Positions 2 to 18,715 of a stretch of 20,000 nucleotides of DNA are shown piece by piece. The notes below the pieces were generated by a model, which did not search any database, was not told the DNA's origin, and saw nothing but the letters and a program-made list of their open reading frames with translations. A program made the translations under genes and the position numbers. Source of the stretch: an uncultured virus (IMG/VR IMGVR_UViG_3300029705_000096) (Duplodnaviria > Heunggongvirae > Uroviricota > Caudoviricetes); the IMG/VR virus record IMGVR_UViG_3300029705_000096; one strand, given 5' to 3'. Numbering within the stretch: position 1 is the stretch's first letter; every line of letters begins with the position of its first letter.

Positions 2-157
2 GATGCTTTCTCAGGCATCAACTACATCGACATTACATTGACAGCAACCTCGAACAAAGAAAAACCGAGCGTGTACACAGCTCGAAGCCAAGCAATTACA
101 GCTAGACAGAGAGCCTTCACCAGCGAAGACATGATAACGGTGGATTTCTATGAGTAA
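2..157 (+). CDS. C-terminal fragment of a probable baseplate J-like (wedge) protein, 5'-truncated by the window
   Basis: Open frame from the window edge (DAFSGINYIDITL...ITARQRAFTSEDMITVDFYE*), TAA at 155-157 overlapping the next ATG at 150. The product call rests on position directly upstream of a DUF2612-like gene. Confidence 0.55.
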   Translation, partial: DAFSGINYIDITLTATSNKEKPSVYTARSQAITARQRAFTSEDMITVDFYE

Positions 158-812
158 TAGATATGTTGTAAATCTCCAAAGTGATCTGCTTGAGCAATTT
201 CGAGGAAAGCCGAATATCGAGGCTCTTGTTGAGGTAATTGGCGTTGAACTCCAAGAAGTGTATGATTTTTTCTCTCAACTCCTGATCGAGCGAGACATCA
301 AGGTCGCAGTCGGAAAACAGCTGGACGGAATAGGCAGCATTGCAGACATGACCCGCAGCGAGGCGATTGCTCTTGCAAGAGACGCCAATTACCCCTATAC
401 CGATGAAGATGAGATGTATCGAGTATTCCTACTCTACAAAATCTTCGTCAACACGGCAAAGGGGACATATGCCGATGTTCTAAGATCCATCCACATGTTA
501 TGGGAAGGAACACTGACATATGAGGAGGATGCAACAGTTCCTGCGACCATTATCCTGAATTTTGAGCGGTTTAATGGGCTTGATATTCAGAGACTTCTAA
601 AGGTGCCCATTGTCAAACCTGCAGGCGTTAGAATTCTTTTCCGAGCCACTGGTCGAAAGGATCATTCTTTCTATACTGCAGGAACAATCACACATAGCAA
701 AAGAATAACCTACACCCAAGAAGAATACGACTTCTCTATCCCTGACATCCTCGTAGACGAAGACCAAAACCTTCTTCTTGATGAAAATGGTAATATCCTA
801 ACCGAAGGCTGA
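150..812 (+). CDS. DUF2612-like phage baseplate protein
   Basis: Motifs 'LLEQFRGKPNIEAL', 'AVGKQLDGIGSI', 'DEMYRVFLLYKIFVNTAKGT' and 'KPAGVRI' are typical of DUF2612/gpI-like baseplate proteins; lies between a baseplate J-like gene and the tail fibre. Confidence 0.75.
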   Translation: MSNRYVVNLQSDLLEQFRGKPNIEALVEVIGVELQEVYDFFSQLLIERDIKVAVGKQLDGIGSIADMTRSEAIALARDANYPYTDEDEMYRVFLLYKIFVNTAKGTYADVLRSIHMLWEGTLTYEEDATVPATIILNFERFNGLDIQRLLKVPIVKPAGVRILFRATGRKDHSFYTAGTITHSKRITYTQEEYDFSIPDILVDEDQNLLLDENGNILTEG

Positions 813-829
813 CAGGGAGGTAATGAAAT

Positions 830-1891
830 ATGTCCATATTCGTTGAAACTACCGACAGTGGCATCGGCTTGATGGTTCAGGCCCTGTTTGGAGACGCCAC
901 TATAGAGTTTACAAGGTTTGAATTCGGGAATGGGGACGTCCCCTCTGAACCCGAAAAGATGACCGAACTGGGCAACAAAATCTTTGAAAGCCCCGTTGTT
1001 GGTGAAATTGTTAAAGGCGAAAACTATGTCGATGTAGCAACGAAATTCGACAACAGAAATGTATCGCACGATTTCACTCTCACGGAAATTGGAGTATTTG
1101 CTATCGATGTGGGCACTCAGGAAGAGGTGATGTTTGCTTACATTCATCTCGGCGACCAAGGCGAACCTGTTCTTAGCACTGCGGCAAATAAACTGGTTGA
1201 GAATGAGATTGTCGTTCGTATCATTATCGACAAAGCCATAAACGTTACTGCTTCGGTTGCATCCACCATGTATGCATATCAAAAGGACTTTGATGACCAC
1301 TTGAAAGACTACGACAATCCGCACAAGGTCACAAAAGCACAAATTGGGCTTGGTGAAGTTCCGAATACGCATCCCAAAGACACAGAGATTAAATTTACAG
1401 AAGCACAGGAAATCGGAAATATAATGTCAGGAGATACGATCGGAACTGTCTTCGGAAAAATTGCGGCTGCAATCAGAGCTTTGATTGCCCACATCGCAAA
1501 CAAAAACAACCCGCATCAGATTACGCCCATGTCTATTGGTGCTGCTGGAGAAGGACACTCACACGCAACTTCCGACATTAAAACCGGCGTGCTTACTGTT
1601 TTGAGAGGTGGCACAGGGAAGAACAACTGGATAGCCAACAGAATTCTTTTCGCTGCTGCAAGCGATGAACTCGGCCAAATCAAGAATCCTGACAAAAAGT
1701 CTTTCCTCGTCCAAGGATCTAGTGGAGCACCATATTTTGAAGCCATTTCCGAGTTCGCCTTTTTCTCTACAGGAAAAGAAGCCCCTGATAGTACGAATAT
1801 CTTGTGGATTGATACAACTCCTACTACCGGCGGACTTAAATACCACAACGGGACAGAATGGACACATGTGCCTGTTGCATATGTGCAGTAA
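830..1891 (+). CDS. Phage tail fibre / tail-collar protein (short, 353 aa)
   Basis: The N-terminus ('TTDSGIGL...FTRFEFGNG...FTLTEIGVFA...MFAY') resembles the baseplate-anchoring tail-collar domain. Two 'HxxxxxNPHxVT' fibre motifs (HLKDYDNPHKVTKAQIGLG, HIANKNNPHQIT), a His-x-His motif (GHSH) and 'VLRGGTG'. RBS GGGAGGT upstream. Confidence 0.8.
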   Translation: MSIFVETTDSGIGLMVQALFGDATIEFTRFEFGNGDVPSEPEKMTELGNKIFESPVVGEIVKGENYVDVATKFDNRNVSHDFTLTEIGVFAIDVGTQEEVMFAYIHLGDQGEPVLSTAANKLVENEIVVRIIIDKAINVTASVASTMYAYQKDFDDHLKDYDNPHKVTKAQIGLGEVPNTHPKDTEIKFTEAQEIGNIMSGDTIGTVFGKIAAAIRALIAHIANKNNPHQITPMSIGAAGEGHSHATSDIKTGVLTVLRGGTGKNNWIANRILFAAASDELGQIKNPDKKSFLVQGSSGAPYFEAISEFAFFSTGKEAPDSTNILWIDTTPTTGGLKYHNGTEWTHVPVAYVQ

Positions 1892-1900
1892 GGAGAGAAT

Positions 1901-2230
1901 ATGAAAACGCTTGTATTTGATATTCCGTATGATCTTTCCAGTTTGATAGAAATGCTCGATTATGAAACGGGAGCATTGAGAGAACTCCTTGCGTATGCAG
2001 CCTCCAAAGGGTTAGAGAACACTACTGCATATCAAAAGTGGGAACAGGACTACCACGCCACCTACAAAGAATTCCAGATTGCAAAACAAACTCTGCAGAA
2101 TGATTATCTGCCCCGTGTCGTCGAAGGAACCGTTTTGAACTGGGAGCTGACTTACTCAACCAACTCGATCGAAGTACAAGTCTGTCAATGCGAGGGGGAG
2201 CAGAATGAAGAAGCACGAGTCGTTCTCTGA
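1901..2230 (+). CDS. Small accessory protein resembling the 'CXXX repeat peptide modification system protein' (TIGR04116-like)
   Basis: 109 aa, helical-looking body ending in 'NWELTYSTNSIEV', which recalls the W-x-I-D-F-x-T-x-E-I end of that family. RBS AAGGAG; overlaps the rSAM start by 26 nt. Confidence 0.6.
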   Translation: MKTLVFDIPYDLSSLIEMLDYETGALRELLAYAASKGLENTTAYQKWEQDYHATYKEFQIAKQTLQNDYLPRVVEGTVLNWELTYSTNSIEVQVCQCEGEQNEEARVVL

Positions 2231-3524
2231 TAAGCTTGGACGGATTTATCACCCGATTGATGCCGATGATACCTTCAAGGTAAACGATTGGAGAGCAAAA
2301 ACAATCACATTTCAGATCACAGAGGAATGCAACCTGAATTGCTCCTATTGTTATCAGGGAGCGAAATCTCGAAACAGAATGAGTTTTGAGACAGCCAAAG
2401 AAATTGTAGACACCCTTTTGGCTGCAGACAGCAGGACGAATCAATATATCACATCGGACAAAATCAGCGGTGTTATCTTGGATTTCATAGGTGGAGAGCC
2501 ACTGCTCGAAGTAGATTTGATCGATCAAATCATGGACTATTTTCTGGAACAGGCGTTTTTGCTCAATCACCCTCTGGCGACCAGATATATGATCTGTATA
2601 TCTTCGAATGGCACCTTGTATTTCACAGAAAGCGTACAGAGATTTCTGGAAAAATGGGAAGGTCGAATCTCTTTTTCTGTTAGCGTTGATGGGAACAAGG
2701 AACTCCATGATTCCTGCAGAGTCTTTCCTGATGGGACTGGAAGTTATGACCTTGCAATTGCTGCAGCCAAAGACTACATGAACAAACATGGCTTCATAGG
2801 AAGTAAAATGACGATAGCTCCCGGAAATGTCATGCATGTAAGAAGTGCTGTAAACAGCCTGCTTCAGGAAGGGTATGACGAGATTTATCTGAACTGCGTT
2901 TTCGAAGAAGGGTGGGAGCTTTCTCATGCCCAAATTCTGTACAGACAGCTCAGAGGACTGGCTGACGATTTGTTGGCTATGGAAAATCAACCCTATCTGT
3001 CCATATTTGACGAACACATCGGACACCCCATGAAGGAATCAGATAACCAAAACTGGTGCGGTGGGTGCGGAAGCATGCTTGCGGTCAATTGGAAAGGAGA
3101 ATTCTTTCCTTGCCTCAGATACATGGGATCTAGCCTGAACGGAGCACAAGAGCCGTTCATAATCGGAGACCTTGAGAATGGGATTATGAATTTGCAGGAA
3201 CACCGCGACAGGGTACAGGAACTCTCTGTCATCGACCGGAAGTCTCAAAGCACAGAGGAGTGCTGGAGCTGCCCCATCGCATCTGGATGTGCATGGTGTT
3301 CGGCATATAACTATCAGGTATATGGAACACCGAATAAAAGAGCGACCTTTATTTGCAAAATGCACCAGGCTAGAGTCTTAGCAAACGCATACTACTGGAA
3401 CCTGATATACAAAAAAGAAAACATAGGAACACGGTACTTGTTAGATATTCCTGCTGATTGGGCTGTCGAAATAGTTGGCGAGAACGAATACGCTATGCTC
3501 AAATCTTTGGCGGAGGAGGTGTAG
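2205..3524 (+). CDS. Radical SAM/SPASM peptide maturase, CXXX-repeat target family (TIGR04115-like)
   Basis: CxxxCxxC motif ECNLNCSYC (C42/C46/C49, nt 2328-2351), 'DFIGGEPLL' and 'SVSVDG...HDSCR'. SPASM cysteines 'NWCGGCG...FPCLRY...ECWSCPIASGCAWCSAYNY...ATFICKMH'. Adjacent to a Cys-every-fourth-residue protein. Confidence 0.92.
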   Translation: MKKHESFSDKLGRIYHPIDADDTFKVNDWRAKTITFQITEECNLNCSYCYQGAKSRNRMSFETAKEIVDTLLAADSRTNQYITSDKISGVILDFIGGEPLLEVDLIDQIMDYFLEQAFLLNHPLATRYMICISSNGTLYFTESVQRFLEKWEGRISFSVSVDGNKELHDSCRVFPDGTGSYDLAIAAAKDYMNKHGFIGSKMTIAPGNVMHVRSAVNSLLQEGYDEIYLNCVFEEGWELSHAQILYRQLRGLADDLLAMENQPYLSIFDEHIGHPMKESDNQNWCGGCGSMLAVNWKGEFFPCLRYMGSSLNGAQEPFIIGDLENGIMNLQEHRDRVQELSVIDRKSQSTEECWSCPIASGCAWCSAYNYQVYGTPNKRATFICKMHQARVLANAYYWNLIYKKENIGTRYLLDIPADWAVEIVGENEYAMLKSLAEEV

Positions 3525-3527
3525 TAG

Positions 3528-4199
3528 GTGGCATATATCGACCATGAAAGATTTCTTGATCTCAAAAAGCGAGTACGAGAAGAATGCCTCAAAAGGTGCT
3601 ACACTGGATCGGTGCTGATGTATGGAAGTCAAGACTTTGACTTTGAAAACCAACCTGCGGAAGGAAATCTGATTCTTGGGGAGCATTATGAGAAAATTGC
3701 AACCCCCCTCGCTGCGATCAATTCTGACCTAGTTCCAGATTTAGATCCCAAACGAATTGTCTCCGAAGAAGAACTCGCTATGTTGGAGGCGGCAGTAACT
3801 ACATTTGAGGCAGAGTCGAAAGCAAGGACAACTCCGGGTGAATGCAAATCGTCCTGCACCGGAACCTGTTATACAGAATGCTCCGCATCATGTACCGGAA
3901 GTTGTGGTGGAAACTGTTCCGGTGGTTGTCTTACAAGCTGCAATGGGTGCGACGGATGTAGTGGCAGCTGCACCAACGTATGTTCTGGATGCACAAGTAC
4001 ATGCAAAACGCACTGTACTGGAGGATGCAGCGGTTCCTGCAAGGAGACCTGCACTGTTTCTTGTGGATTTAGGGGTTGCTCCGGAAGCTGTAGAAATCAT
4101 TGCTACAATGGTTGCGTTTCTTCTTGCGGTGGAGGCTGCTCAACTTGTGGCAGCAACTGTTCGGGCGTTAGTCTAGTAGGAACGCAAAGCAGTCATTAA
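3528..4199 (+). CDS. Cys-rich CXXX-repeat modification target (precursor) with a ~105-aa N-terminal domain
   Basis: GTG start 3 nt after the rSAM stop, GGAGGAGG RBS. Residues 106-211 hold 28 Cys (22 CxxxC, 4 CxxC, 1 CxxxxC intervals) in a Gly/Ser/Thr-rich background. Confidence 0.88.
   Translation: MAYIDHERFLDLKKRVREECLKRCYTGSVLMYGSQDFDFENQPAEGNLILGEHYEKIATPLAAINSDLVPDLDPKRIVSEEELAMLEAAVTTFEAESKARTTPGECKSSCTGTCYTECSASCTGSCGGNCSGGCLTSCNGCDGCSGSCTNVCSGCTSTCKTHCTGGCSGSCKETCTVSCGFRGCSGSCRNHCYNGCVSSCGGGCSTCGSNCSGVSLVGTQSSH
3843..4160 (+). repeat. Degenerate 12-nt/4-aa Cys-Xaa-Xaa-Xaa periodic repeat
   Basis: TGY codons recur mostly every 12 nt from 3843 to 4158; translation CKSS CTGT CYTE CSAS CTGS CGGN CSGG... 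Confidence 0.9.
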
Positions 4200-4210
4200 G
4201 AGGTGACAAC

Positions 4211-4759
4211 ATGAATATTGCATCAAAGTTTGATATAGCTGCCTTGAACCTTTTCGTGGCAGCAAGTGAGGGAACTGTTTCTACGGAACATAGAATGGAA
4301 ATTTTCGAAAGCGTTGCTGGCGATCTTGACCTTATGGTCGAGGCCCTTAATGCGTTGATCGTCGGACACAATGCTAGAGTGTACTCTGGAACGCTTTCTG
4401 CGGAGAAGGCTTTTAAGTCCATTAAAGCAGAATACAAAGCAATTGGTTTTGGAGAAATTGTTCCTTTCGATTGCATGGAAGGTCCTCTTGAGATGCTTTA
4501 TTATAGAAAAAGCTCAGATGAAATAGATATGGACCACATGTTCGAGATCATCCAGAAGATGTTCCAAAAAAATGAAACCTGTCCCAACGAGAGAATTAAG
4601 TGTGGCGTATATCAGCTTGCGCTGAGAACAATTACGCACTACAACCTCGTAGCAAAGGACATAAGTTTCTCCAGACAAGTCATCGATAAAGTAAATTCCT
4701 ACACACAGGAACAAAAAGATTCCGCTCTTTTGCCCCCTGCCATTGTGACAGAACTGTAG
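4211..4759 (+). CDS. Hypothetical protein (182 aa), possible fourth component of the rSAM cassette
   Basis: RBS AAGAGGTG and ATG 11 nt after the precursor stop. Helical-looking, no recognised motif, and lacks the Gly/Thr-rich composition of the flanking tail proteins. Confidence 0.7.
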   Translation: MNIASKFDIAALNLFVAASEGTVSTEHRMEIFESVAGDLDLMVEALNALIVGHNARVYSGTLSAEKAFKSIKAEYKAIGFGEIVPFDCMEGPLEMLYYRKSSDEIDMDHMFEIIQKMFQKNETCPNERIKCGVYQLALRTITHYNLVAKDISFSRQVIDKVNSYTQEQKDSALLPPAIVTEL

Positions 4760-6108: not shown

Positions 6109-6609
6109 ATGAGCTACAAAAAACATATTTTTGCAGACGGGCATATACTAAAAGCCGAACATCTCAATGCCATGGAAGATCAGATCGCCCAGAACGAATC
6201 CAACAATGGCAACTTGGCTGACCTTTCCACAGACTCCAAATCATCCACTGTTTCGGCGATCAATGAACTTAATTCAAAAAAGGCAAATGCACCAACCAAG
6301 GCAGCGGTTGGACAGATACTTGTCGTAAAATCGGTCGACTCAGAAGGACATCCAACAGAGTTTGAGACTATCGCACTTCCTCAATGTGATTTTGGAGAAG
6401 AAGCAAAGATACTGTTGGTGGATATTCTTGGAAGCGCAAAATTTGAATCAGACCAAACATCCAACATTTCTGCTCTGGCAGAGGCGTTGGGTGTTGTTTT
6501 TTCACCTGAGCTTCCTGAAGAAAATGGCGTAGAAAAGGTCGACGAGACGCTGGTTATCACTGACAATGTCGACGCAGTACAAGATGGAAACACACTGGTA
6601 ATATCTTGA
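6109..6609 (+). CDS. Tail-associated structural protein (hypothetical)
   Basis: RBS AGGAGG. Motifs 'F.DG..LKAEHLNAME', 'GNLADLST.SK...VSAINEL' and 'VGQILVVKSVD.EG.PTEFE'. Confidence 0.6.
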   Translation: MSYKKHIFADGHILKAEHLNAMEDQIAQNESNNGNLADLSTDSKSSTVSAINELNSKKANAPTKAAVGQILVVKSVDSEGHPTEFETIALPQCDFGEEAKILLVDILGSAKFESDQTSNISALAEALGVVFSPELPEENGVEKVDETLVITDNVDAVQDGNTLVIS

Positions 6610-6622
6610 GAGGAGTGAATTT

Positions 6623-8032
6623 ATGAGCAAAGACGTATTGATCGGCGAACAGACGTATTCAGGAATAACAGACGTGCAGCTTAAAACCACAACTGGTCAA
6701 GCCGCCACGTTCAAAGATGTTGACGAGATCGTCACACCGAGCGGTGAAAAGGAAATCACAGCAAACGGCACATACGATATCACGGGATATGCCAGCGTGG
6801 TCGTAAATATTCCGACGGAGGGTGAAGCAATGACGATTAACACAGAAGCAAGCACAACATTTGAACTTGCAAATGGCACCGAATTCAGACGGGGAGAGGT
6901 AGCGGAACTTGTTCTTACAATCCCCGAGGAACTCCCCACAGCTTTTAGCTGTCAAGTTGCATTTACAAGTGGTGAAAACGCAACTAGCATTACAATGCCC
7001 ACAGATGTCGTAATGCAAGGCGAATCTGTGTCCAATGGAGTTTTCACACCCAAGGCCCATTATCGATATGGTCTCATGTTCTGGTACGACGGCGAAATCG
7101 TGTGGTGTGTCATTTGTGCCGCAGCTCTGGAAGGAGCAGAAGACAATCCTGACGAAGGCGGCAGCGGAGATAATACCGGAGATGACACCGGCGATACTGG
7201 AAATACCGGAGGTTCTGGATCTGGCGGCGAAGATGATAACACCGAGATGACTGGTAGCGGAACGGAGTCTGATCCGTACATGATTGCAACTGCAGCACAG
7301 TTCGTTGCACTTGGAGAAGAAGTTGATGCCGGCGATACGAAGAGTGGAGTTTATTACGCCGTTGCAAACGACCTCGATTTGGATGGCATCGAATGGAACC
7401 CCATTGGCGCAAACTATAAGAATACCAACAGTGACACCGACAATAGCGGTAGCTTTGCCGGTACGATTGATGGTCGTGGTCACGTCATCCGCAATATCAG
7501 CATAAACGGCATGCAGTATGCAGGTCTGTTTGGCTCGAACTTTGCCGGTACAGTAATGAACCTTGGACTTGAAGGTGGCTCCATCAGCACGACTTATGCA
7601 AGTTCCACTTGCGGTGCCATTGCACGCAAGGGTTCCGGCAAGATCGTAAATTGCTACGCACGAGTTCCCGGTCAAGCTGTTACTCGTTCGTCCGGTATCA
7701 TTGATGAGATCGAAGCTGGCGGCATGGTCCTTGGCTGTTACCAAGCTGCAGCTATCAACAACGGAAATGGCTATGCGATCAAGTCTGCTACTACAACAAC
7801 CGGAACAATTAAGTATTGCCTGTGGGATAGCACATTGACAGAAAAGGGTATTGCCGGGACTTCTTCTTCTGATTCCAACAATAACGGTATTACAACCGCA
7901 GAGTTTGCAACAGCTCATACAACCCTCAATAATAATCTTTCCGCTGTTGCTGCTGCGGCCGGAATCGATGTTGCCAAGCTGTGTGCTTGGGAGGCTGGTT
8001 CTGACGGTTATCCCAGACTGGTGGTGGCGTGA
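6623..8032 (+). CDS. Tail-associated protein with a C-terminal GLUG-type/beta-helical adhesin-like domain
   Basis: RBS GAGGAG. N-terminal 'PSGEKEITANGTYD...YASVVVNIP', an acidic Gly/Asp/Thr linker, then 'GSGTESDPYMIATAAQF...DLDL.GIEWNPIG...FAGTIDGRGHVIRN...YAGLFG', typical of GLUG-associated surface domains. Confidence 0.65.
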   Translation: MSKDVLIGEQTYSGITDVQLKTTTGQAATFKDVDEIVTPSGEKEITANGTYDITGYASVVVNIPTEGEAMTINTEASTTFELANGTEFRRGEVAELVLTIPEELPTAFSCQVAFTSGENATSITMPTDVVMQGESVSNGVFTPKAHYRYGLMFWYDGEIVWCVICAAALEGAEDNPDEGGSGDNTGDDTGDTGNTGGSGSGGEDDNTEMTGSGTESDPYMIATAAQFVALGEEVDAGDTKSGVYYAVANDLDLDGIEWNPIGANYKNTNSDTDNSGSFAGTIDGRGHVIRNISINGMQYAGLFGSNFAGTVMNLGLEGGSISTTYASSTCGAIARKGSGKIVNCYARVPGQAVTRSSGIIDEIEAGGMVLGCYQAAAINNGNGYAIKSATTTTGTIKYCLWDSTLTEKGIAGTSSSDSNNNGITTAEFATAHTTLNNNLSAVAAAAGIDVAKLCAWEAGSDGYPRLVVA

Positions 8033-8964
8033 TGAGTCTTACGATGAGACGATTTGCTGCAATTGCTCAACTATCGTCAGGTAGTGCAGTTGCGCCTGTT
8101 CTTCGGTACAAGCTCGGAATTATATCGGACTCTCACTCTGGATACACAAATGCAGTTCCGCATTTAACGGCAACCTTGAATACGCTTCATAATCGTGGGG
8201 CGCAAGAAATCGTCACTTGCGGAGATAGTGCTGTAAATGGTACTCAGGCAGAATGGGAGCAGTATATCAGCACAATCGAATCGTCCCCGTACAAGAGAAC
8301 TCAAGTTCATGAGTGCAATGGCAACCACGATGGTGCCGCCCCCGATCTGACCACGTTTAAGCAGTATTCAAACAATGGAGCTTTGGTGGGAAAAGATCCG
8401 TACTTTGCGATCGACCTGTTTGGAGATCGTTTCATTTTCTTGGCTTTCGATGTTGGAACGTCTCCCAGCGGTGGAAACTGCTTCTCAACAGCACAGCTTG
8501 ATTGGCTTGAAGAAGAGCTTCAGGAGCACTACGGCAAAGGGAAGAATGTGTGGATCATTGAACACTCTCTTTTCTATGGTTGGGGTGCTGGTGATATTAT
8601 TTCCGCCCCTAGATACCCAAGAGCCTTGTCCCTTTCCTTTGATAGCCATATCCGCCTGAAATCCATTTTGGAAGCACATCCCAAGCTTATCTTCCTCCAC
8701 GGACATACGCATATTAGGCTTGAAGATGTTTCCGAAGGACTCGTTGCCCATGCACTTCCTGCGGATGCCGGATGCAATCAGATTCACGTCCCTGCTGTTA
8801 CCGCAGGTAAGTTTATTGGAGGCAGCGGCGAACCCTCGGCGGATTTTAGTATGGACCCGGAATGCTGGTACTGCGAAGTTTACACAAACAAGATTGTTTT
8901 CATCGGTCTTAACGGCAATACTGGTGAAGAAATAGCAAACGTTTCTCATACTATTGCAGTCTAA
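8032..8964 (+). CDS. Calcineurin-like metallophosphoesterase
   Basis: All five family motifs appear in order: IISDSH, TCGD, NGNHD, IEH, FLHGHTH. The ATG at 8032 overlaps the upstream stop (TGATG); the track's GTG at 8029 is an alternative start. Confidence 0.85.
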   Translation: MSLTMRRFAAIAQLSSGSAVAPVLRYKLGIISDSHSGYTNAVPHLTATLNTLHNRGAQEIVTCGDSAVNGTQAEWEQYISTIESSPYKRTQVHECNGNHDGAAPDLTTFKQYSNNGALVGKDPYFAIDLFGDRFIFLAFDVGTSPSGGNCFSTAQLDWLEEELQEHYGKGKNVWIIEHSLFYGWGAGDIISAPRYPRALSLSFDSHIRLKSILEAHPKLIFLHGHTHIRLEDVSEGLVAHALPADAGCNQIHVPAVTAGKFIGGSGEPSADFSMDPECWYCEVYTNKIVFIGLNGNTGEEIANVSHTIAV

Positions 8965-8990
8965 GAGAAGCGAAGAGTTGAGGTGTGAAA

Positions 8991-10877
8991 ATGGCAAGAT
9001 ATTACGTTCGAAATCCCGACAATCCTCAGGAGTGGCTGCTTGTAGGTGGTAACGCCAAAGGGGCTGTCCTGTACAACAGACCTCAAACTCTTAGCGAAGA
9101 AGCAAAGAGCGTTGCAAGAGACAATATTGGCTCAGCTTCCAAGGCAATCGTCGGCGATCTTAAAAAACTCAACACTTCGTCAAAGAACGATTTGGTCGAA
9201 GCCATAAACGAAATTCTCAGACTTGTTGGAACAGGAGTCGGAGGAACTGTTGATCCGGAACAGATCGAAAGAATTGTCGAGGATTATTTAGAAAATAATC
9301 CGCCCGAAGATGGTCAGGATGGTATTTCTGCAACGCATAGTTGGGAAGGTACTGTCCTGACCATGACAAGTGCAAGCGGCACATCGAAGGTAGATCTTCA
9401 AGGCCCCAAAGGGGATGACGGAATATCACCGCACATCTACCTCGAACAGATCGATGGCGGACATAGAATCACCATTGAAGATGCTTTCGAAAGAAAAGAG
9501 TTTGTCATCAAGAACGGTTCTGACGGGCGAGATGGTGATAATGGCGCAACGCCAGAACTCAAAATTGGCACCGTTACGACTGTATCCTACGGGGGTGAGG
9601 CAAAAGCAACAATAACGGGAACGGCAGATAAGCCGGTTCTCAACCTATGGCTTCCTTCTGGTCCCGCTGGATCTTCTTCCGAAGGGGATGACGGAAGAGA
9701 AGTTGTCCTTCGTGCTTACGGTGGTTATATCCAATGGCAATATGTTGGTGATACCACTTGGGAAAACATTGTCGCATTGTCTGAAATATCCGGAGACGAT
9801 GGTGTAGGCATCGAAAGTGTAGAGCAGACTACTACCTCTGATGAAGACGGTGGCACAAACAAAATTGTACTGAGACTGTCCGATGGGTCTGAAACTGAAA
9901 TATCAATAAAGAACGGCTCTGCAGGAACACCGGGCAGAACTCCGGTTAAAGGCGAAGACTACTTTACCGATACAGAAAAGCAAGAGATTGCCGAAGAAGC
10001 ATCAAAGCTTGTAACCATCGATCAAGTTCTCCCCACACAAGTCGTTTTCCCCGAAGGACAGACAACGAACTTTGCCATCGGCAAGGTAAAACTGTCGAAT
10101 GGTAGCGCAGAGCTTATTCCTGTAGGAGGAACACTGCAGGACTTCTTCGACAAATTGGTTGAAGAAAAGAACCCCTCTACAACTCAGCCGAAAGTAACGC
10201 TTACGTTCGATCAGGCAAAGGCTTATGAAGTTGGAACAAAAGTCACTCCTACCTATAAAGCCACCCTCAGCGCAGGTTCATACACATACGGACCCGCTAC
10301 AGGAGTTGTAGCATCTGCATGGGAAGTCACTGACACCCAAAACGCTAAAAGAACAACAGCCAGCGGTAGCTTTGATGAAATCCAAATAGTTGATGATATA
10401 AGCTATAAGATTACAGCAAAAGCAACTCACAACGCAGGTGCTGTTCCTGTAACAAACCAGAAGAACCCTTATGCCGCCGGCCAGATTAAATCCGGAACAA
10501 AAAGTGCTACCTCTGGAGCGATGACAGGATATCGAAACGTCTTCTATGGAACAAGAACAGATAAGACAGATCTCACATCTGATAAGATCCGCGCTCTCTC
10601 TGGAAAATCCGGAAAGGCTCTATCAAATGGAAGCACATTTGTGGTTGATGTTCCTGTTGGAGCCTTGCGTGTTGTTATAGCATATCCGGCCACCCTTCAG
10701 GATATTTCTTCTGTAAAAGACGTGAACGGCATGAATGCTGAAATTGCTTCAGGTTTCTCGATGATTACACTTGATGTTTATGGAGTTGATGGATACAAAG
10801 CCATTCCGTACAAAGTGTATATCATGGACTTTGCATCCGCAAATGACACGGCAAACACCCTTGCTGTAACAATCTAA
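8991..10877 (+). CDS. Large tail fibre-like protein with short collagen-like (Gly-X-Y) segments
   Basis: RBS GAGGTG favours the ATG at 8991. Segments 'GQDGIS', 'LQGPKGDDGISP', 'NGSDGRDGDNGATP..IGTVTT', 'GYIQWQY.GD..W.NIV' and 'TPVKGEDYFT'; Thr-rich beta-type C-terminal region. Confidence 0.7.
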   Translation: MARYYVRNPDNPQEWLLVGGNAKGAVLYNRPQTLSEEAKSVARDNIGSASKAIVGDLKKLNTSSKNDLVEAINEILRLVGTGVGGTVDPEQIERIVEDYLENNPPEDGQDGISATHSWEGTVLTMTSASGTSKVDLQGPKGDDGISPHIYLEQIDGGHRITIEDAFERKEFVIKNGSDGRDGDNGATPELKIGTVTTVSYGGEAKATITGTADKPVLNLWLPSGPAGSSSEGDDGREVVLRAYGGYIQWQYVGDTTWENIVALSEISGDDGVGIESVEQTTTSDEDGGTNKIVLRLSDGSETEISIKNGSAGTPGRTPVKGEDYFTDTEKQEIAEEASKLVTIDQVLPTQVVFPEGQTTNFAIGKVKLSNGSAELIPVGGTLQDFFDKLVEEKNPSTTQPKVTLTFDQAKAYEVGTKVTPTYKATLSAGSYTYGPATGVVASAWEVTDTQNAKRTTASGSFDEIQIVDDISYKITAKATHNAGAVPVTNQKNPYAAGQIKSGTKSATSGAMTGYRNVFYGTRTDKTDLTSDKIRALSGKSGKALSNGSTFVVDVPVGALRVVIAYPATLQDISSVKDVNGMNAEIASGFSMITLDVYGVDGYKAIPYKVYIMDFASANDTANTLAVTI

Positions 10878-10889
10878 GGAGGTGGGGAC

Positions 10890-12443
10890 ATGGCTGATTT
10901 CGGAACGCTTAATTTTTCTGTTGCATTCAAACCTACCGGCGCATTTCCCATCAACGCAAATCAGTATTTTGAAAGCTTGGATGAAGCAAGGGCAGCGGCC
11001 GCATCTGCAGAGGAAGTCGGTAGCACAAATACCGTTTATCACTATGGAATGAAGCTCCTTGTTTCTCAGGACGGTGTAGACACATGGTACACAATCCTGA
11101 GAGACGGGACTCTTTCTCCTGAAGGGACAACCGGCCCGTCCGAAGTTGTGCTTGTCATACCCAAGAAATATGACGAGCTGAAAGAACTCCTGAATAATTC
11201 CGCCCTTGTTGCAGGTAGTTTATATCGCATAACCGACTATGTCACCGCAACTACTCAAGAGGCGACCCAGAGCGCAGGACATCAATTTGATATCTTGGTT
11301 CAAGCTCTTACCGCTAGTACGCTTGCCGAAGAAGCGAAAGCAATCCATCACGATGGAGACGAATACTTCTCAAGCAGCAATCTTAATGGATGGCAGCTTT
11401 GGTACACCATAGACAACGACACAAATCGGTTTGCATGGGCAGACGCTGAAAACGGCAAAGGCGTCATCTATCGACTGATAGATGAGTGGGGAAACGAGTG
11501 CCCATATGATTTCAAAAACATCATGATGCAAAATCCTCTTGACGCAGATGATTCTGGGTACTATTACACGTTCGACAACGCAGGAGGAGATCTTTCCCTC
11601 ATTGGTGAACTGTGTTTCTCAAACCACATTGACAAATATATAGATGGTGCTCAGAAGATCAACAGGAATATTTTCATCGCTGCCGGGTTGGAGGTCAGTG
11701 GGAACTCCTTTGACACCCAATGCTACAACAATGTTTTCCGCAGAGCAACAAGGCGGTTGAGCTTTGCTCGTGAATGCTACGGAAATAACTTTCTGGGGCA
11801 CAATCATCTGAGCACGTTCGATACAAAGTTCAGAAATAATACTGTCGGCGGAGAAACACAGTCAATCCAAGTTGGGCAAGGAGCAACCAACAATGTTTTT
11901 GCTAACAACATTTACTATTGCTCGTTCGGCAACTATTTCAAAAACAATGTCCTTTGTAGTTATCTGTACTACAGCACTTTCGGCCATTATATTCAGAACT
12001 GCATATTAGGAGAAAGTGCAGAGCTTCCTGGCCAATACATGAGATTTTTGACATTTGAGAACAATGTCACTTACTTGAATCTCTACAAGGCGGATACTGC
12101 TACAAAATCCTATTTGGAGAATGTAACAATATCCAGCGGCACTTGCGGATCATCTGCTGCGCGAATTATGCTTCTTGTAGAAGAATTGGCGCAGAAATAT
12201 GCAATTACTTTCGGCCTGAACACAAAAGGAATTGTCGAAAAATATTGTGCTGCAGACCTGCCCAGTTCTGCAAATAATTCAGGAGGAGTTAGTTTCAAAA
12301 CAGATGAAACTCTCTCTTTGGTCGATGGGGTGCTCTCTGTCAACACGGCTAATTCTGCTGAAGAAGACAACACAAAACCCATCACATCAGCTGCTGTTCA
12401 TACACAGCTCGGCAACATCGAAGCCCTGCTTCAGACAATATGA
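10890..12443 (+). CDS. Putative receptor-binding/tail protein with an Asn-ladder parallel beta-helix
   Basis: RBS AAGGAGGTG. ~11-residue Asn/Phe repeats (GNSFDTQCYNNVF, GNNFLG, NNTVGG, NNVFAN, CSFGNYFKNNVL, STFGHY) follow a 'GVIYRLIDEWGNECPYDFKNI' domain. Confidence 0.6.
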   Translation: MADFGTLNFSVAFKPTGAFPINANQYFESLDEARAAAASAEEVGSTNTVYHYGMKLLVSQDGVDTWYTILRDGTLSPEGTTGPSEVVLVIPKKYDELKELLNNSALVAGSLYRITDYVTATTQEATQSAGHQFDILVQALTASTLAEEAKAIHHDGDEYFSSSNLNGWQLWYTIDNDTNRFAWADAENGKGVIYRLIDEWGNECPYDFKNIMMQNPLDADDSGYYYTFDNAGGDLSLIGELCFSNHIDKYIDGAQKINRNIFIAAGLEVSGNSFDTQCYNNVFRRATRRLSFARECYGNNFLGHNHLSTFDTKFRNNTVGGETQSIQVGQGATNNVFANNIYYCSFGNYFKNNVLCSYLYYSTFGHYIQNCILGESAELPGQYMRFLTFENNVTYLNLYKADTATKSYLENVTISSGTCGSSAARIMLLVEELAQKYAITFGLNTKGIVEKYCAADLPSSANNSGGVSFKTDETLSLVDGVLSVNTANSAEEDNTKPITSAAVHTQLGNIEALLQTI

Positions 12444-12457
12444 TAGGAGTGTGAATC

Positions 12458-13345
12458 ATGAGCATTGCACAACGAATAAGCACTATTCAAACAGACAGAA
12501 ACACAATCCGAGCCAAGCTGGTTGAACTCGGTCTGGCAACGAACACAGACAAGCTGACTGCTCTTGCGGCTGCGATCGAAGATATCGTCAATCAAGGTGC
12601 AGTATCTGTCGAGATCAAAGAGGGTACAATCTATACGATTCCGGCTGGTTTCCACAACGGCTCTGGTGTCGTAAAAGCTATTTCCGACGCAGCCGGCGAC
12701 GCAGAGACCTACAAGACTCAGGCAAAGGTTGTAACCCCCACAAAGAAACAACAGAGTGTAACGCCCGATGTCGGCTACTATGCTCTGGAATCTGTCACTG
12801 TCTATCCCATTCCTGACGCATATCAAGATGTTACCAGCGTTACCGCAACGGCAGAAGACACACTTACCGGAAAAATCTTTGTTGCAGCGGATGGTACTGT
12901 TGTAACAGGTACTATGCCCAACAATGGCACTGTAGATAAGATCCTCGACTGTACGACTCTTACCTACACAATCCCGAAGGGCATGCACAGCGGCACTGGT
13001 AAGATCCAGATCATTGTAGAAACAAAAACTGTAACTCCCACCAAGGCCGTACAGGAAATCACTCCTACAGATGGAAAGGTACTTTCCAAGGTTACAGTTG
13101 CGGCTATTCCCGATGCATATCAGGACGTCACTCCCGTTGATGCCACAGCGGCAGATGTGGTTGTTGGAAAGACTATCGTTGCCGCCGATGGCACCGTGAT
13201 TGAAGGGGGAATTCCCGTCAATGGCGACGTATCCAGAACAATCGATGGCCTGACAACAACCAGTGTAGAAATTCCTGCAGGAAGCACTACTGGAGGAACC
13301 GTGAGTCTCACAGACGATATTGAAGAAGCTCTTGCGGCTATCTGA
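12458..13345 (+). CDS. Tail protein with an internal tandem duplication
   Basis: RBS AGGAG. Two copies of 'YTIP.G.H.G.G...VTPTK..Q..TP..G..L..VTV..IPDAYQDVT.V.ATA.D...GK..VAADGTV..G..P.NG'. Confidence 0.7.
   Translation: MSIAQRISTIQTDRNTIRAKLVELGLATNTDKLTALAAAIEDIVNQGAVSVEIKEGTIYTIPAGFHNGSGVVKAISDAAGDAETYKTQAKVVTPTKKQQSVTPDVGYYALESVTVYPIPDAYQDVTSVTATAEDTLTGKIFVAADGTVVTGTMPNNGTVDKILDCTTLTYTIPKGMHSGTGKIQIIVETKTVTPTKAVQEITPTDGKVLSKVTVAAIPDAYQDVTPVDATAADVVVGKTIVAADGTVIEGGIPVNGDVSRTIDGLTTTSVEIPAGSTTGGTVSLTDDIEEALAAI
12632..13264 (+). repeat. Two diverged ~100-110-codon intragenic repeats
   Basis: IPDAYQDVT is encoded at 12809 (attcctgacgcatatcaagatgttacc) and 13106 (attcccgatgcatatcaggacgtcact); YTIP starts at 12632 and 12965. 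Confidence 0.8.
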
Positions 13346-17465: not shown

Positions 17466-17885
17466 ATGGAAATAAAAGAATTCTTATCTGCGTTGCTCCA
17501 AGCGATACTGATTGCCTCTATACCTGTGGTTGCTACATACATCAAGAAGAGTCTTCAGGCGTTTGCAGAATATCTGAAATCAAAAATCGAGAACGACAAA
17601 TCTAAGCATATTCTGGACGACATCGCAAAAGCTGTCACGGATGCAGTGACATACACGAGCCAGACATATGTTGACGCACTCAAGCAGAGCGGATCATTTA
17701 CCATGGAGAACCAAGGGATTGCACTTCAGAAGTCCTATGACAAAGCAAAAATGCTGCTTGGAGATCAGGCAATTGAGTACATCGAACTCACATACGGCAA
17801 CCTGAAGGAATATCTCACCACCAGAATTGAGGCTGAAGTCAGGAAGCAAAAAGTTTGTGTTCAGGCTGTAGAAGCGAAGGAGTGA
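17466..17885 (+). CDS. Phage holin, LL-H-like family
   Basis: Single N-terminal TM followed by 'AVTDAV.YTSQTYVDALK...IEAEVRKQK'; directly upstream of the endolysin. Confidence 0.7.
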   Translation: MEIKEFLSALLQAILIASIPVVATYIKKSLQAFAEYLKSKIENDKSKHILDDIAKAVTDAVTYTSQTYVDALKQSGSFTMENQGIALQKSYDKAKMLLGDQAIEYIELTYGNLKEYLTTRIEAEVRKQKVCVQAVEAKE

Positions 17886-17890
17886 GAAAC

Positions 17891-18715
17891 ATGACTGAAT
17901 TGGAAAAGCGTCAACAGGTAGTTGATATCATGGCTGGATGGGTTGGCGCAACCAAGGGAAGTGCGGCACATAGAGAAATCCTATCTTTGTACAACGGCCG
18001 TTATCCTATTGCGAGAGGGTACGCTGTCCAAGAATATGACGATTATTGTGCTACAACGGTAAGTGCTGCCTTCATCAAGGCTGGGATCGCCGAGTACACA
18101 GGGACTGAGTGTGGCGTAGAACGGTTCGTTGAAGTTGCAAAAGAAAAAGGCATATGGATCGAAGATGATGCATTTGTTCCCCAGTTCGGAGATGCGATTG
18201 TCTACGATTGGCAAGACACAGGCGTAGGAGACAGCCAGGGCTGGGCAGACCACATCGGCATCGTCGCTGCAGTGAATGGAAACCTTGAAACCGTAATTGA
18301 AGGCAACATGAGCGGCGGCGTTGTTGGAACCAGATCGATTGAGGTCAATGCAAGATACATACGAGGCTATATCTGCCCTGACTATGCAAAGATTGTCGGC
18401 GTGTCAACCGTTTCTCCGTCTGTTCAGCCACTACCTCAAGTGCCACTGCAGCCGCAGCAAACGCATCCTCAAACAACAGATCTTAACTACGAAATGTTCA
18501 AGAGTTACCTTGCCAAATACAGAGGCGAGGTACGAGACAATGATGCATCTGCGTACAGCGAGGAAGCTCGTATCTGGAGTGTAGCAATGGGCTTAATCGC
18601 TGGCGGAGGCAATGGCGCGGACGGAAAGCCAAATTATATGTGGGAAGATTTTCTCACGAGAGAGCAATTTGTTACCGTGCTGTACCGGTTCGCTAAGATT
18701 ATGGGTAGAGCCTAA
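17891..18715 (+). CDS. Endolysin: CHAP catalytic domain, Pro/Gln linker and SLH-like domain
   Basis: RBS AAGGAG favours ATG 17891. CHAP residues 'YCATTVS', 'DHIGIV' and 'VIEGN'; C-terminal 'W....GLIAG...LTREQFVTVLYRF' SLH signature. Confidence 0.85.
   Translation: MTELEKRQQVVDIMAGWVGATKGSAAHREILSLYNGRYPIARGYAVQEYDDYCATTVSAAFIKAGIAEYTGTECGVERFVEVAKEKGIWIEDDAFVPQFGDAIVYDWQDTGVGDSQGWADHIGIVAAVNGNLETVIEGNMSGGVVGTRSIEVNARYIRGYICPDYAKIVGVSTVSPSVQPLPQVPLQPQQTHPQTTDLNYEMFKSYLAKYRGEVRDNDASAYSEEARIWSVAMGLIAGGGNGADGKPNYMWEDFLTREQFVTVLYRFAKIMGRA

Follow-up and report, generated by a model that had tools for sequence, protein, structure and literature searches.

The pairing of a radical S-adenosylmethionine (SAM) maturase with a cysteine-rich CXXX-repeat target is already defined in databases, in silico only (NCBIfam/TIGRFAM, Pfam), as a kit consisting of the maturase TIGR04115, the accessory protein TIGR04116, a second maturase TIGR04119, the target TIGR04117 and the repeat PF27846. 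No paper describing the CXXX-repeat system was found in a literature search, and searches that combined radical SAM enzymes with tail fibres, virions or prophages turned up no account of this phage form. Here we analysed a 20,000-nucleotide stretch (the window) of the uncultured Caudoviricetes virus IMGVR_UViG_3300029705_000096, a 73,007-base IMG/VR record estimated to be 86% complete. The element under study is the open reading frame (ORF) at 3528-4199, which follows a maturase gene of this kind and encodes a predicted helical N-terminal domain and a long cysteine array. We propose, with slightly less than even confidence, that this ORF encodes the substrate of a phage-type CXXX-repeat radical SAM system, and that its product stays a two-part protein and works with the tail apparatus.

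Like the canonical CXXX-repeat system, the locus has a maturase scoring above the TIGR04115 cut-off, a target whose Cys recur every four residues and an adjoining TIGR04116-related accessory gene. The target carries a precomputed Pfam assignment to PF27846, named tSAM_targ_Cxxx_rpt in the Atlas, where the cluster label [quoted passage not shown] (score 0.84) is a lead only. The locus differs from the canonical system in being viral, in lying within a tail module and in having its own maturase clade, and its target has a helical domain of ~100 aa in place of a Tat (twin-arginine translocation) signal or short leader. The second maturase TIGR04119 has no match at E ≤ 1 in the whole record, and the accessory is too diverged for a direct TIGR04116 match, giving no NCBIfam match at E ≤ 0.1. 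Unlike the Tat-exported CXXX proteins of the Bacteroidales type, the target has no recognisable twin-arginine signal peptide and its N-terminus is not signal-like, and none of the 25 window ORFs matched a Tat family in Pfam.

CrpC, a SPASM radical SAM enzyme of Methanococcus voltae, is reported to install ranthionine cross-links in the large Cys-rich protein CrpA (PMC13692751). Like the present target, CrpA is a large Cys-rich repeat protein and not a short peptide; an N-terminal region is involved in engagement, and the CrpC/CrpA pair offers a precedent for protein-sized thioether (ranthionine) substrates (PMC13692751). The same report gives the CrpA repeat as 17 residues with C-X-X-Q/D motifs instead of CXXX, in an archaeal instead of a viral setting, and a section title credits CrpC with its own predicted RRE (recognition element) (PMC13692751). 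CrpC belongs to another maturase family, TIGR04463, whose cut-off is 525 bits; the window enzyme scored only 63.6 bits on it. Among characterised maturases, PapB/freyrasin and the ranthipeptide/SCIFF enzymes (NF047865 and TIGR03974), which form repeated Cys-containing small rings, are the highest-scoring relatives of the window enzyme, although its scores of 171 and 107 bits fall below their cut-offs of 340 and 425. These maturases act on short leader-core peptides whose acceptor residues are acidic; such residues are mostly missing from the window array. On the QhpC/QhpD maturase family (TIGR03906) the enzyme scored 112 bits against a cut-off of 453. QhpD cross-links Cys in QhpC, which is exported, loses its leader to a dedicated protease and is kept as a structural subunit of the quinohemoprotein amine dehydrogenase assembly; it has three cross-links, not a ladder such as that proposed for the window target.

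The features of the locus are as follows, in window coordinates:

150-812, plus strand: baseplate-like gene (Pfam/PHROG annotation)
830..1891, plus strand: tail fibre gene just 5′ of the cassette (phrog_7037 tail fiber protein, 1.1e-23)
1901..2230, plus strand: small accessory protein of 109 aa, a divergent TIGR04116 relative
2205..3524, plus strand: radical SAM/SPASM maturase of 439 aa (TIGR04115)
3512..3519, plus strand: Shine-Dalgarno sequence GGAGGAGG of the target gene, within the 3′ end of the maturase gene
3528..3842, plus strand: helical domain of the target, residues 1-105 (family membership and structure model)
3843..4160, plus strand: CXXX cysteine array, residues 106-211, 28 Cys, the presumed substrate region
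4161..4199, plus strand: 12-residue C-terminal tail and stop codon (ORF translation)
4211..4759, plus strand: 182-aa protein of no matched family 3′ of the target, uncertain member of the system
17466-17885, plus strand: holin (Pfam/PHROG)
17855-18715, plus strand: endolysin (Pfam/PHROG)

To place these genes among their relatives, loci (designated by L numbers) were gathered with a four-sequence maturase alignment, taking the best 80 of 229 viral and the best 80 of 521 genome loci. The maturase of the window matched TIGR04115, “radical SAM peptide maturase, CXXX-repeat target family”, with 465.6 bits against a cut-off of 350, residues 31-397 aligning with profile positions 1-359 (466 bits in a genome rerun). 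Pfam gave Radical_SAM (38.7 bits), Fer4_12 and, just below its cut-off of 21.5, SPASM (21.1 bits). The CX3CX2C cysteines C42, C46 and C49 are invariant in 4 homologues, as are the C-terminal C285, C303, C353, C356, C362, C365 and C384. The next-best models, namely those of PapB, QhpD and SCIFF at the scores above and CcpM at 115 bits, were all below their own cut-offs; the closest characterised relatives are thioether formers. Maturase pieces or insertions were seen elsewhere: the maturase ORF of L049 (4825-7212) is 795 aa long and has an internal stretch, possibly an intein or homing element, that matches PHROGs of ribonucleotide reductase and helicase, and in L057 (5307-6287) and L075 (4983-5312) the maturase appears in pieces.

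The window enzyme has only ~30 residues before its core. Related maturase profiles reach ~65-90 positions further N-terminal, a region absent from the window enzyme: those of the SCIFF, CcpM, QhpD, Nif11-type and HxsB maturases align with it only from positions 66-92 onward. In these enzymes the N-terminal domain is a peptide-recognition element. Given this short start and the fusion in L016 (1373-2872) of the accessory to the maturase N-terminus as one 499-aa ORF, the accessory plausibly stands where related maturases have their N-terminal domain. A jackhmmer search from the 1901-2230 protein reached 136 of 167 sources (the window and 166 loci), cellular loci included, and cellular members of the family scored 101-104 bits on TIGR04116, “CXXX repeat peptide modification system protein”; it did not detect the accessory in the domain-last loci L060, L062, L071, L073, L094 and L095. 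The AlphaFold2 (AF2) model of the accessory, with a pLDDT (predicted local distance difference test score) of 92, consists of a strand, two long helices and a beta-hairpin. Fold searches with it returned generic helical hairpins only (Foldseek best E 0.64; VIA best Z 8.0, a designed helical protein), and the best PDB sequence match of its profile (3.6e-4, to coiled-coil SNARE chains) was read as a composition effect. The accessory is also found in Tat-type and short-peptide loci that have no helical domain. It is thus unlikely to be a reader of that domain, since it is common to loci whose targets have different N-termini.

The initial annotation described the target as a 105-aa N-terminal region ahead of a 106-aa core with 28 Cys, and these counts are exact: the GTG-started ORF encodes 223 aa on the plus strand and 30 Cys in total, two in the N-region (C20 and C24) and 28 within residues 106-211. 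Its spacing count also agrees, with CxxxC in 22 of the 27 Cys-Cys gaps and four CxxC and one Cx4C in the remainder, and so does its statement that no double-glycine cleavage site is evident ahead of the core, for residues 1-105 contain no Gly-Gly. Array ORFs in the related loci were taken as plus-strand ORFs with at least 6 CxxxC, minus-strand ORFs being excluded, and the classification left out L001, L002, L004 and L013 (duplicates) as well as L005 and L006 (annotated-record loci). The architecture of domain and array recurs beside homologous maturases in 60 of the 80 viral loci (61 domain-first ORFs), and the array is therefore far beyond chance. Across 38 homologues the first three repeats are invariant (C106, C110, G112, C114 and C118), and a Ser-rich junction is conserved along with them. 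Sub-modules had been suggested at the CxxC breaks. In the window these fall irregularly, at gaps 9, 10, 13 and 26; among 1740 Cys-Cys gaps of 38 non-redundant homologues 24.1% are CxxC and 74.3% CxxxC; and Tandem Repeats Finder found no DNA-level repeat in 3500-4250. Breaks that are typical of the family, irregular and without a repeat in the DNA thus give the suggestion no support.

The N-region is a conserved, confidently foldable domain and not a short disordered leader, which bears out the two-part description of the protein. Comparison of homologues, which had been proposed as a check, placed 74 of 85 pre-core regions of at least 80 aa in one family; the other 11 are mostly Termititenax-type proteins and over-extended Tat-type ORFs. 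Against 1.84 billion cluster representatives, a 38-sequence domain profile found 597 matches at E ≤ 1e-3 and 359 at E ≤ 1e-10. In the AF2 model, built from a 38-row alignment, residues 1-100 reach a pLDDT of 81-95 with helices at 6-22, 30-33, 51-68 and 80-95, so that residues 1-105 are confidently modelled as a helical bundle. R23 is invariant in the domain, and E19 and R22 nearly so.

Searches for relatives of this domain outside the family returned little. When 12,709 stop-to-stop frames of at least 50 aa from the window and 166 loci were searched with the hidden Markov model (HMM) of the domain, there were 81 matches at E ≤ 10, every one in a frame with at least 6 CxxxC and none in a tail protein, and the domain was rejected as a module shared with other tail proteins. 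Fold searches with the domain model, likewise proposed as a check, gave nothing above noise (Foldseek against PDB best E 1.2; VIA-wide best Z 6.4). The TssK neck domain appeared in the VIA-wide search at Z 5.1 and 4.6, below the tool's stated noise level for helical bundles; a BFVD search listed only three uncharacterised family members from metagenomic phages; and no PqqD-like or tail-fibre fold was listed with either the domain or the accessory model. The domain profile found nothing credible among PDB sequences (best E 0.34), and a word-preselected homologue search with residues 1-105 or with the profile returned only the query, which is no evidence of absence. As modelled, the domain thus has a fold without a recognisable relative in the fold searches. 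The accessory, with which the domain shares an “ERRNG”-like stretch, was rejected as a homologue (hhalign 0.2% for all accessories, 0.3% for the cellular ones), and homology to the Termititenax N-regions was not supported (hhalign 0.8%).

Whether this domain is removed or kept was judged from the architecture of its relatives. Its place in the protein is not fixed: it follows the array at the C-terminal end in L060, L062, L071 and L073, as found by HMM, and in L018 (two genes), L055-57, L094 and L095, as judged by eye, where the E-x-x-R-R helix is present too. In these domain-last proteins the array starts directly after Met-Ala-Cys. The domain also accepts additions: P0142 has an insert of ~200 aa between the domain halves, with PHROG matches to host-range/adsorption (2.5e-14) and tail (7.8e-12) families and a weak CBM_4_9 match below the cut-off (E 4.6e-4), P0136 has an insert of ~170 aa, and N-terminal extensions of 175 and 135 aa occur in P0059 and P0092. 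In L035 an array is fused to two glycine-rich PF12810 domains (331 bits) in an 809-aa protein adjoining fibre genes. Conversely, arrays occur without the domain: in nine loci (L020-L026, L039 and L052) a further array gene, which lacks any flanking domain and encodes 165-265 aa with 41-64 Cys, lies directly 3′ of a domain-bearing short-array gene (e.g., L023:3867-4664). Modification of these domain-less arrays, if it takes place, would mean that the maturase can act without the domain. No peptidase or exporter family was found among the 25 window ORFs (Pfam, PHROGs) or the 118 proteins of 15 loci. Given the variable order, the inserts, extensions and fusions, the domain-less arrays and the lack of a nearby peptidase or exporter, we read the helical domain as probably a lasting part of the protein and not a disposable N-terminal leader.

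The gene context points to the tail. The target gene begins 4 nt past the maturase stop, with its Shine-Dalgarno sequence 8 nt 5′ of the GTG at 3528. The fibre gene 830..1891 also matches 21 further PHROG families, many of them tail; 3′ of the cassette come small family-less proteins and then fibre-like genes at 6109-13345 on the plus strand, so that the cassette lies in the tail morphogenesis module, with baseplate and fibre genes 5′ and fibre-like genes 3′. The 4211..4759 protein had no Pfam, PHROG or NCBIfam match, and its homologues, in 12 of 167 sources, are close relatives only. PHROG annotation of the cassette surroundings covered the 118 proteins of 15 diverse loci; a tail or baseplate gene lies at most two genes 5′ of the cassette in ten of them (L009, L023, L028, L035, L049, L060, L062, L071, L087 and L094), and the maturases of these tail-adjacent loci are only 37-63% identical to that of the window. 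In a collection of 50,697 phage records, only three matched, all unannotated metagenome clones. Some other genes near cassettes were recorded. A metallophosphoesterase-like gene (8029-8964, plus strand; PF12850 1.6e-6, phrog_1649) sits amid the fibre-like genes of the window, and a minus-strand ORF of 419 aa with 43 Cys (6659-7918), antisense to the fibre-like gene 6623-8032, is taken as an opposite-frame artefact. In L023 a reverse transcriptase (9797-11071; phrog_1423, 7e-73) lies 3.5 kb 3′ of the cassette near tail genes and may belong to a diversity-generating retroelement.

The classification of array ORFs separated viral from cellular loci. Besides the domain-first ORFs given above, the viral loci held four domain-last, three Tat-like, two short-leader and 20 other Cys-array ORFs, and the genome loci held 52 Tat-like ORFs in 39 loci, mostly Bacteroidales, 14 short-leader ORFs in 11 loci, seven domain-first ORFs in seven loci, seven others and no domain-last ORF. 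The domain-first genome loci are Clostridia, and the single annotated one, L087, is a prophage in Neglectibacter timonensis SN17. In five cellular loci examined with NCBIfam the kit comprises TIGR04115, the second maturase TIGR04119 (fused or adjacent) and the accessory TIGR04116; the fused or adjacent TIGR04119 was confirmed in the four checked for it (L098, L099, L126 and L157). The short-peptide loci L098 and L099, in which the same maturase family lies beside peptides of 65-100 aa, have ABC exporters, and the Bacteroidales loci L126 and L157 have tatC, tatA being scored in L157.

A maturase tree (FastTree, midpoint rooted) was built from the 154 of 167 sources with at least 330 profile positions, which gave 143 distinct cores after four duplicate loci were dropped and identical sequences merged. 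All 62 domain-labelled leaves fell in one mostly viral clade of 74 (support 0.971), which contains none of the 40 Tat-type and one of the 11 short-leader leaves. L067 groups with the domain-last loci in a subclade (support 0.965). As related sequences share labels, this match between domain and maturase clade shows lineage, not co-evolution.

Two groups of surveyed loci stand apart. Termititenax/Margulisiibacteriota metagenome-assembled genomes (L150:38-6188, L151, L152, L154 and L155) encode CXXX-array proteins of 495-667 aa with an N-region of their own of 130-185 aa. In L150 the array gene (2426-4429) follows fliI (38-1147) and fliJ (1167-1670), and the nearby maturase scores 275 bits, below the TIGR04115 cut-off; a link of this array protein to flagellar export is conceivable. 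L006 (MT837480.1, 2222-6270), recorded as “Bacteriophage sp.”, has a CXXX protein with a Tat signal, a maturase, an accessory and a second SPASM-like protein, together with tatA- and tatC-like ORFs. It resembles the Bacteroidales chromosomal loci, and the record may be non-viral.

The following mechanism is proposed for the system of maturase (2205-3524), accessory (1901-2230) and target (3528-4199). The SPASM maturase, acting late in the infection of a Clostridia host that is strictly anaerobic and working with the accessory in place of an N-terminal domain, would recognise the Cys array itself and convert its thiols into a ladder of thioether cross-links. The cross-linked array would be a stiff rod resisting proteases and redox change. 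The helical domain would not be cut off and would persist as the other functional half of the mature protein; this protein would act as a tail appendage or accessory with the fibre apparatus, the domain being its assembly or attachment end. An intact two-part product working with the tail is what the architecture and the gene context suggest. Its most specific version, in which gut phages staple a tail appendage by radical SAM chemistry and the virion carries a thioether-cross-linked rod held by the helical domain, is put forward only tentatively, as a possibility that we would not call likely.

Several observations weigh against this proposal. The thioether chemistry of the maturase on the array is suggested only by its kinship, and the virion location and the intact state of the target are deduced from architecture and context. 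The only PHROG match of the target is phrog_6085 (function unassigned, 1.8e-5), with no tail PHROG, and the AF2 run gave no model of the array, where the pLDDT is under 50 from residue 117 onward. Few forms with fusions or inserts were seen, four noted among the best 150 library matches and one among the loci. Tail adjacency is not general: in L018 and L075 the sole tail-like match lies a few genes 3′ of the cassette, and in three of the 15 loci (L057, L067 and L150) no tail gene is nearby. The interval between tail-fibre and lysis genes, a common site of phage cargo genes, holds the cassette in L003, L028, L035 and L062. Moreover, among the best 150 of the 597 library matches of the domain, 108 have an array of at least 4 CxxxC, and most of the remaining 42 look like array DNA read in a shifted frame or short fragments that stop within the domain or shortly past it. 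Such a close tie to arrays is equally what one would expect of an element dedicated to recognition, be it leader or follower; a docking module of general use should turn up on other payloads as well, and among these matches the domain is not such a shared module. Its co-variation with the maturase clade also fits a recognition role.

These last points bring up the alternative that survives best, although we consider it unlikely: the target would be a peptide made by ribosomes and then modified post-translationally (a RiPP) with a long leader or follower, the domain being a recognition element that a host protease removes, and the cross-linked Cys-rich peptide would be freed at lysis as bacteriocin-like or signalling cargo. 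The close tie of the domain to CXXX arrays, its co-variation with the maturase clade, the conservation of the first three repeats and Ser-rich junction and the position of several cassettes between fibre and lysis genes all agree with it, as do the cellular relatives of the maturase family, which act on 65-100 aa peptides beside ABC exporters. Long protein-derived leaders also occur in other RiPP classes (NHLP and Nif11). On the other side, peptidases and exporters are lacking in the surveyed proteins, although a host protease could act instead, and residues 1-105 have no Gly-Gly site. The arrays with neither leader nor follower in nine loci, the 200-aa adsorption-type insert and N-terminal extensions that the domain accepts, the array fused to large glycine-rich domains and the presence of the accessory in loci without the domain fit this explanation poorly.

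A retained two-domain protein could alternatively act in the infected cell or lysate, in host takeover, counter-defence or thiol/redox buffering, its position beside tail genes being a convenience of the operon. This would suit the absence of a tail PHROG match in the target itself and the jumbo-phage locus L057, where the cassette sits amid nucleotide-metabolism and PhoH genes and not tail genes. We consider it rather improbable, since tail or baseplate genes adjoin the cassette in ten of 15 loci in spite of the divergence of their maturases, and the observed fusions are to adsorption-type and glycine-rich domains and none to enzymes.

It is less probable still that the array is a metal or iron-sulfur ladder in which most Cys are ligands and the radical SAM enzyme performs another reaction or installs few cross-links. 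One Cys in four residues is a density like that of metal-binding proteins, the literature search turned up no chemistry for TIGR04115, and Bacteroidales relatives have twin-arginine signals and their own tatA/tatC; the Tat route serves folded, often cofactor-bearing proteins. However, a rod cross-linked beforehand would suit Tat export equally, and the closest characterised maturases all make thioethers.

The initial annotation had also aligned the N-terminal domain by eye with the start of the tail-associated protein 6109-6609. BLASTP of this single pair gave 15 bits with 5/19 identical residues and E 0.41, and when the 38-sequence profile of the domain was compared with the tail protein, hhalign gave a probability of 1.3% and E 0.04; both methods chose the by-eye alignment as the best local match, yet at noise level, and the homology is not significant. 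A regex scan of the loci for the N-terminal motif of the tail protein found 18 matches, 15 of them distinct and of mixed nature, and never as a recurrent fibre N-terminus, and jackhmmer from the 6109-6609 protein found homologues only in loci duplicating the window. A short motif, hydrophobic-L-K/G-A/E-x-H-L/Y-x-x-hydrophobic, was seen in the helical domain (window 3660-3720), the 6109-6609 N-terminus (window 6130-6190) and the Termititenax N-regions (L150, ~2720-2790), with pairwise hhalign probabilities of 1.3% and 1.7%, that is, noise. Homology of the domain to a docking segment of the tail protein, with both plugging into one virion site, is thus very improbable and close to refuted: the agreement of two methods on one alignment of 19-21 residues and the similar motif in Termititenax CXXX proteins stand against insignificant scores, a domain HMM that found no non-array protein among the 12,709 frames, a motif of 15 scattered places and a tail protein confined to the window's own duplicates.

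Work on radical SAM/SPASM maturases has dealt almost entirely with enzymes that make small secreted peptides. In the present survey this enzyme family is found amid tail-fibre genes in dozens of sampled gut-phage loci, with prophage relatives in Clostridia genomes. New in this work are the domain family and its fold model, its placement at either end of the array, its inserts, the domain-less arrays and the maturase clade. The substrate behaves as a modular protein, with the domain at either array end, adsorption-type inserts and arrays fused to large domains. Across the surveyed loci the module that flanks the array is the helical domain in phages, a Tat signal accompanied by private tatAC, or a short leader accompanied by an ABC exporter, which suggests that the same Cys ladder is routed to different destinations by swapping the flanking module. 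If the product is a cross-linked virion part, as proposed, it would give the TIGR04115 family its first function and would be the first case of a virus structural protein in which an enzyme installs a thioether ladder. It would provide a new route to phage appendages that withstand proteases and reducing conditions, and would extend RiPP-type chemistry to structural proteins, building a particle rather than a secreted peptide.

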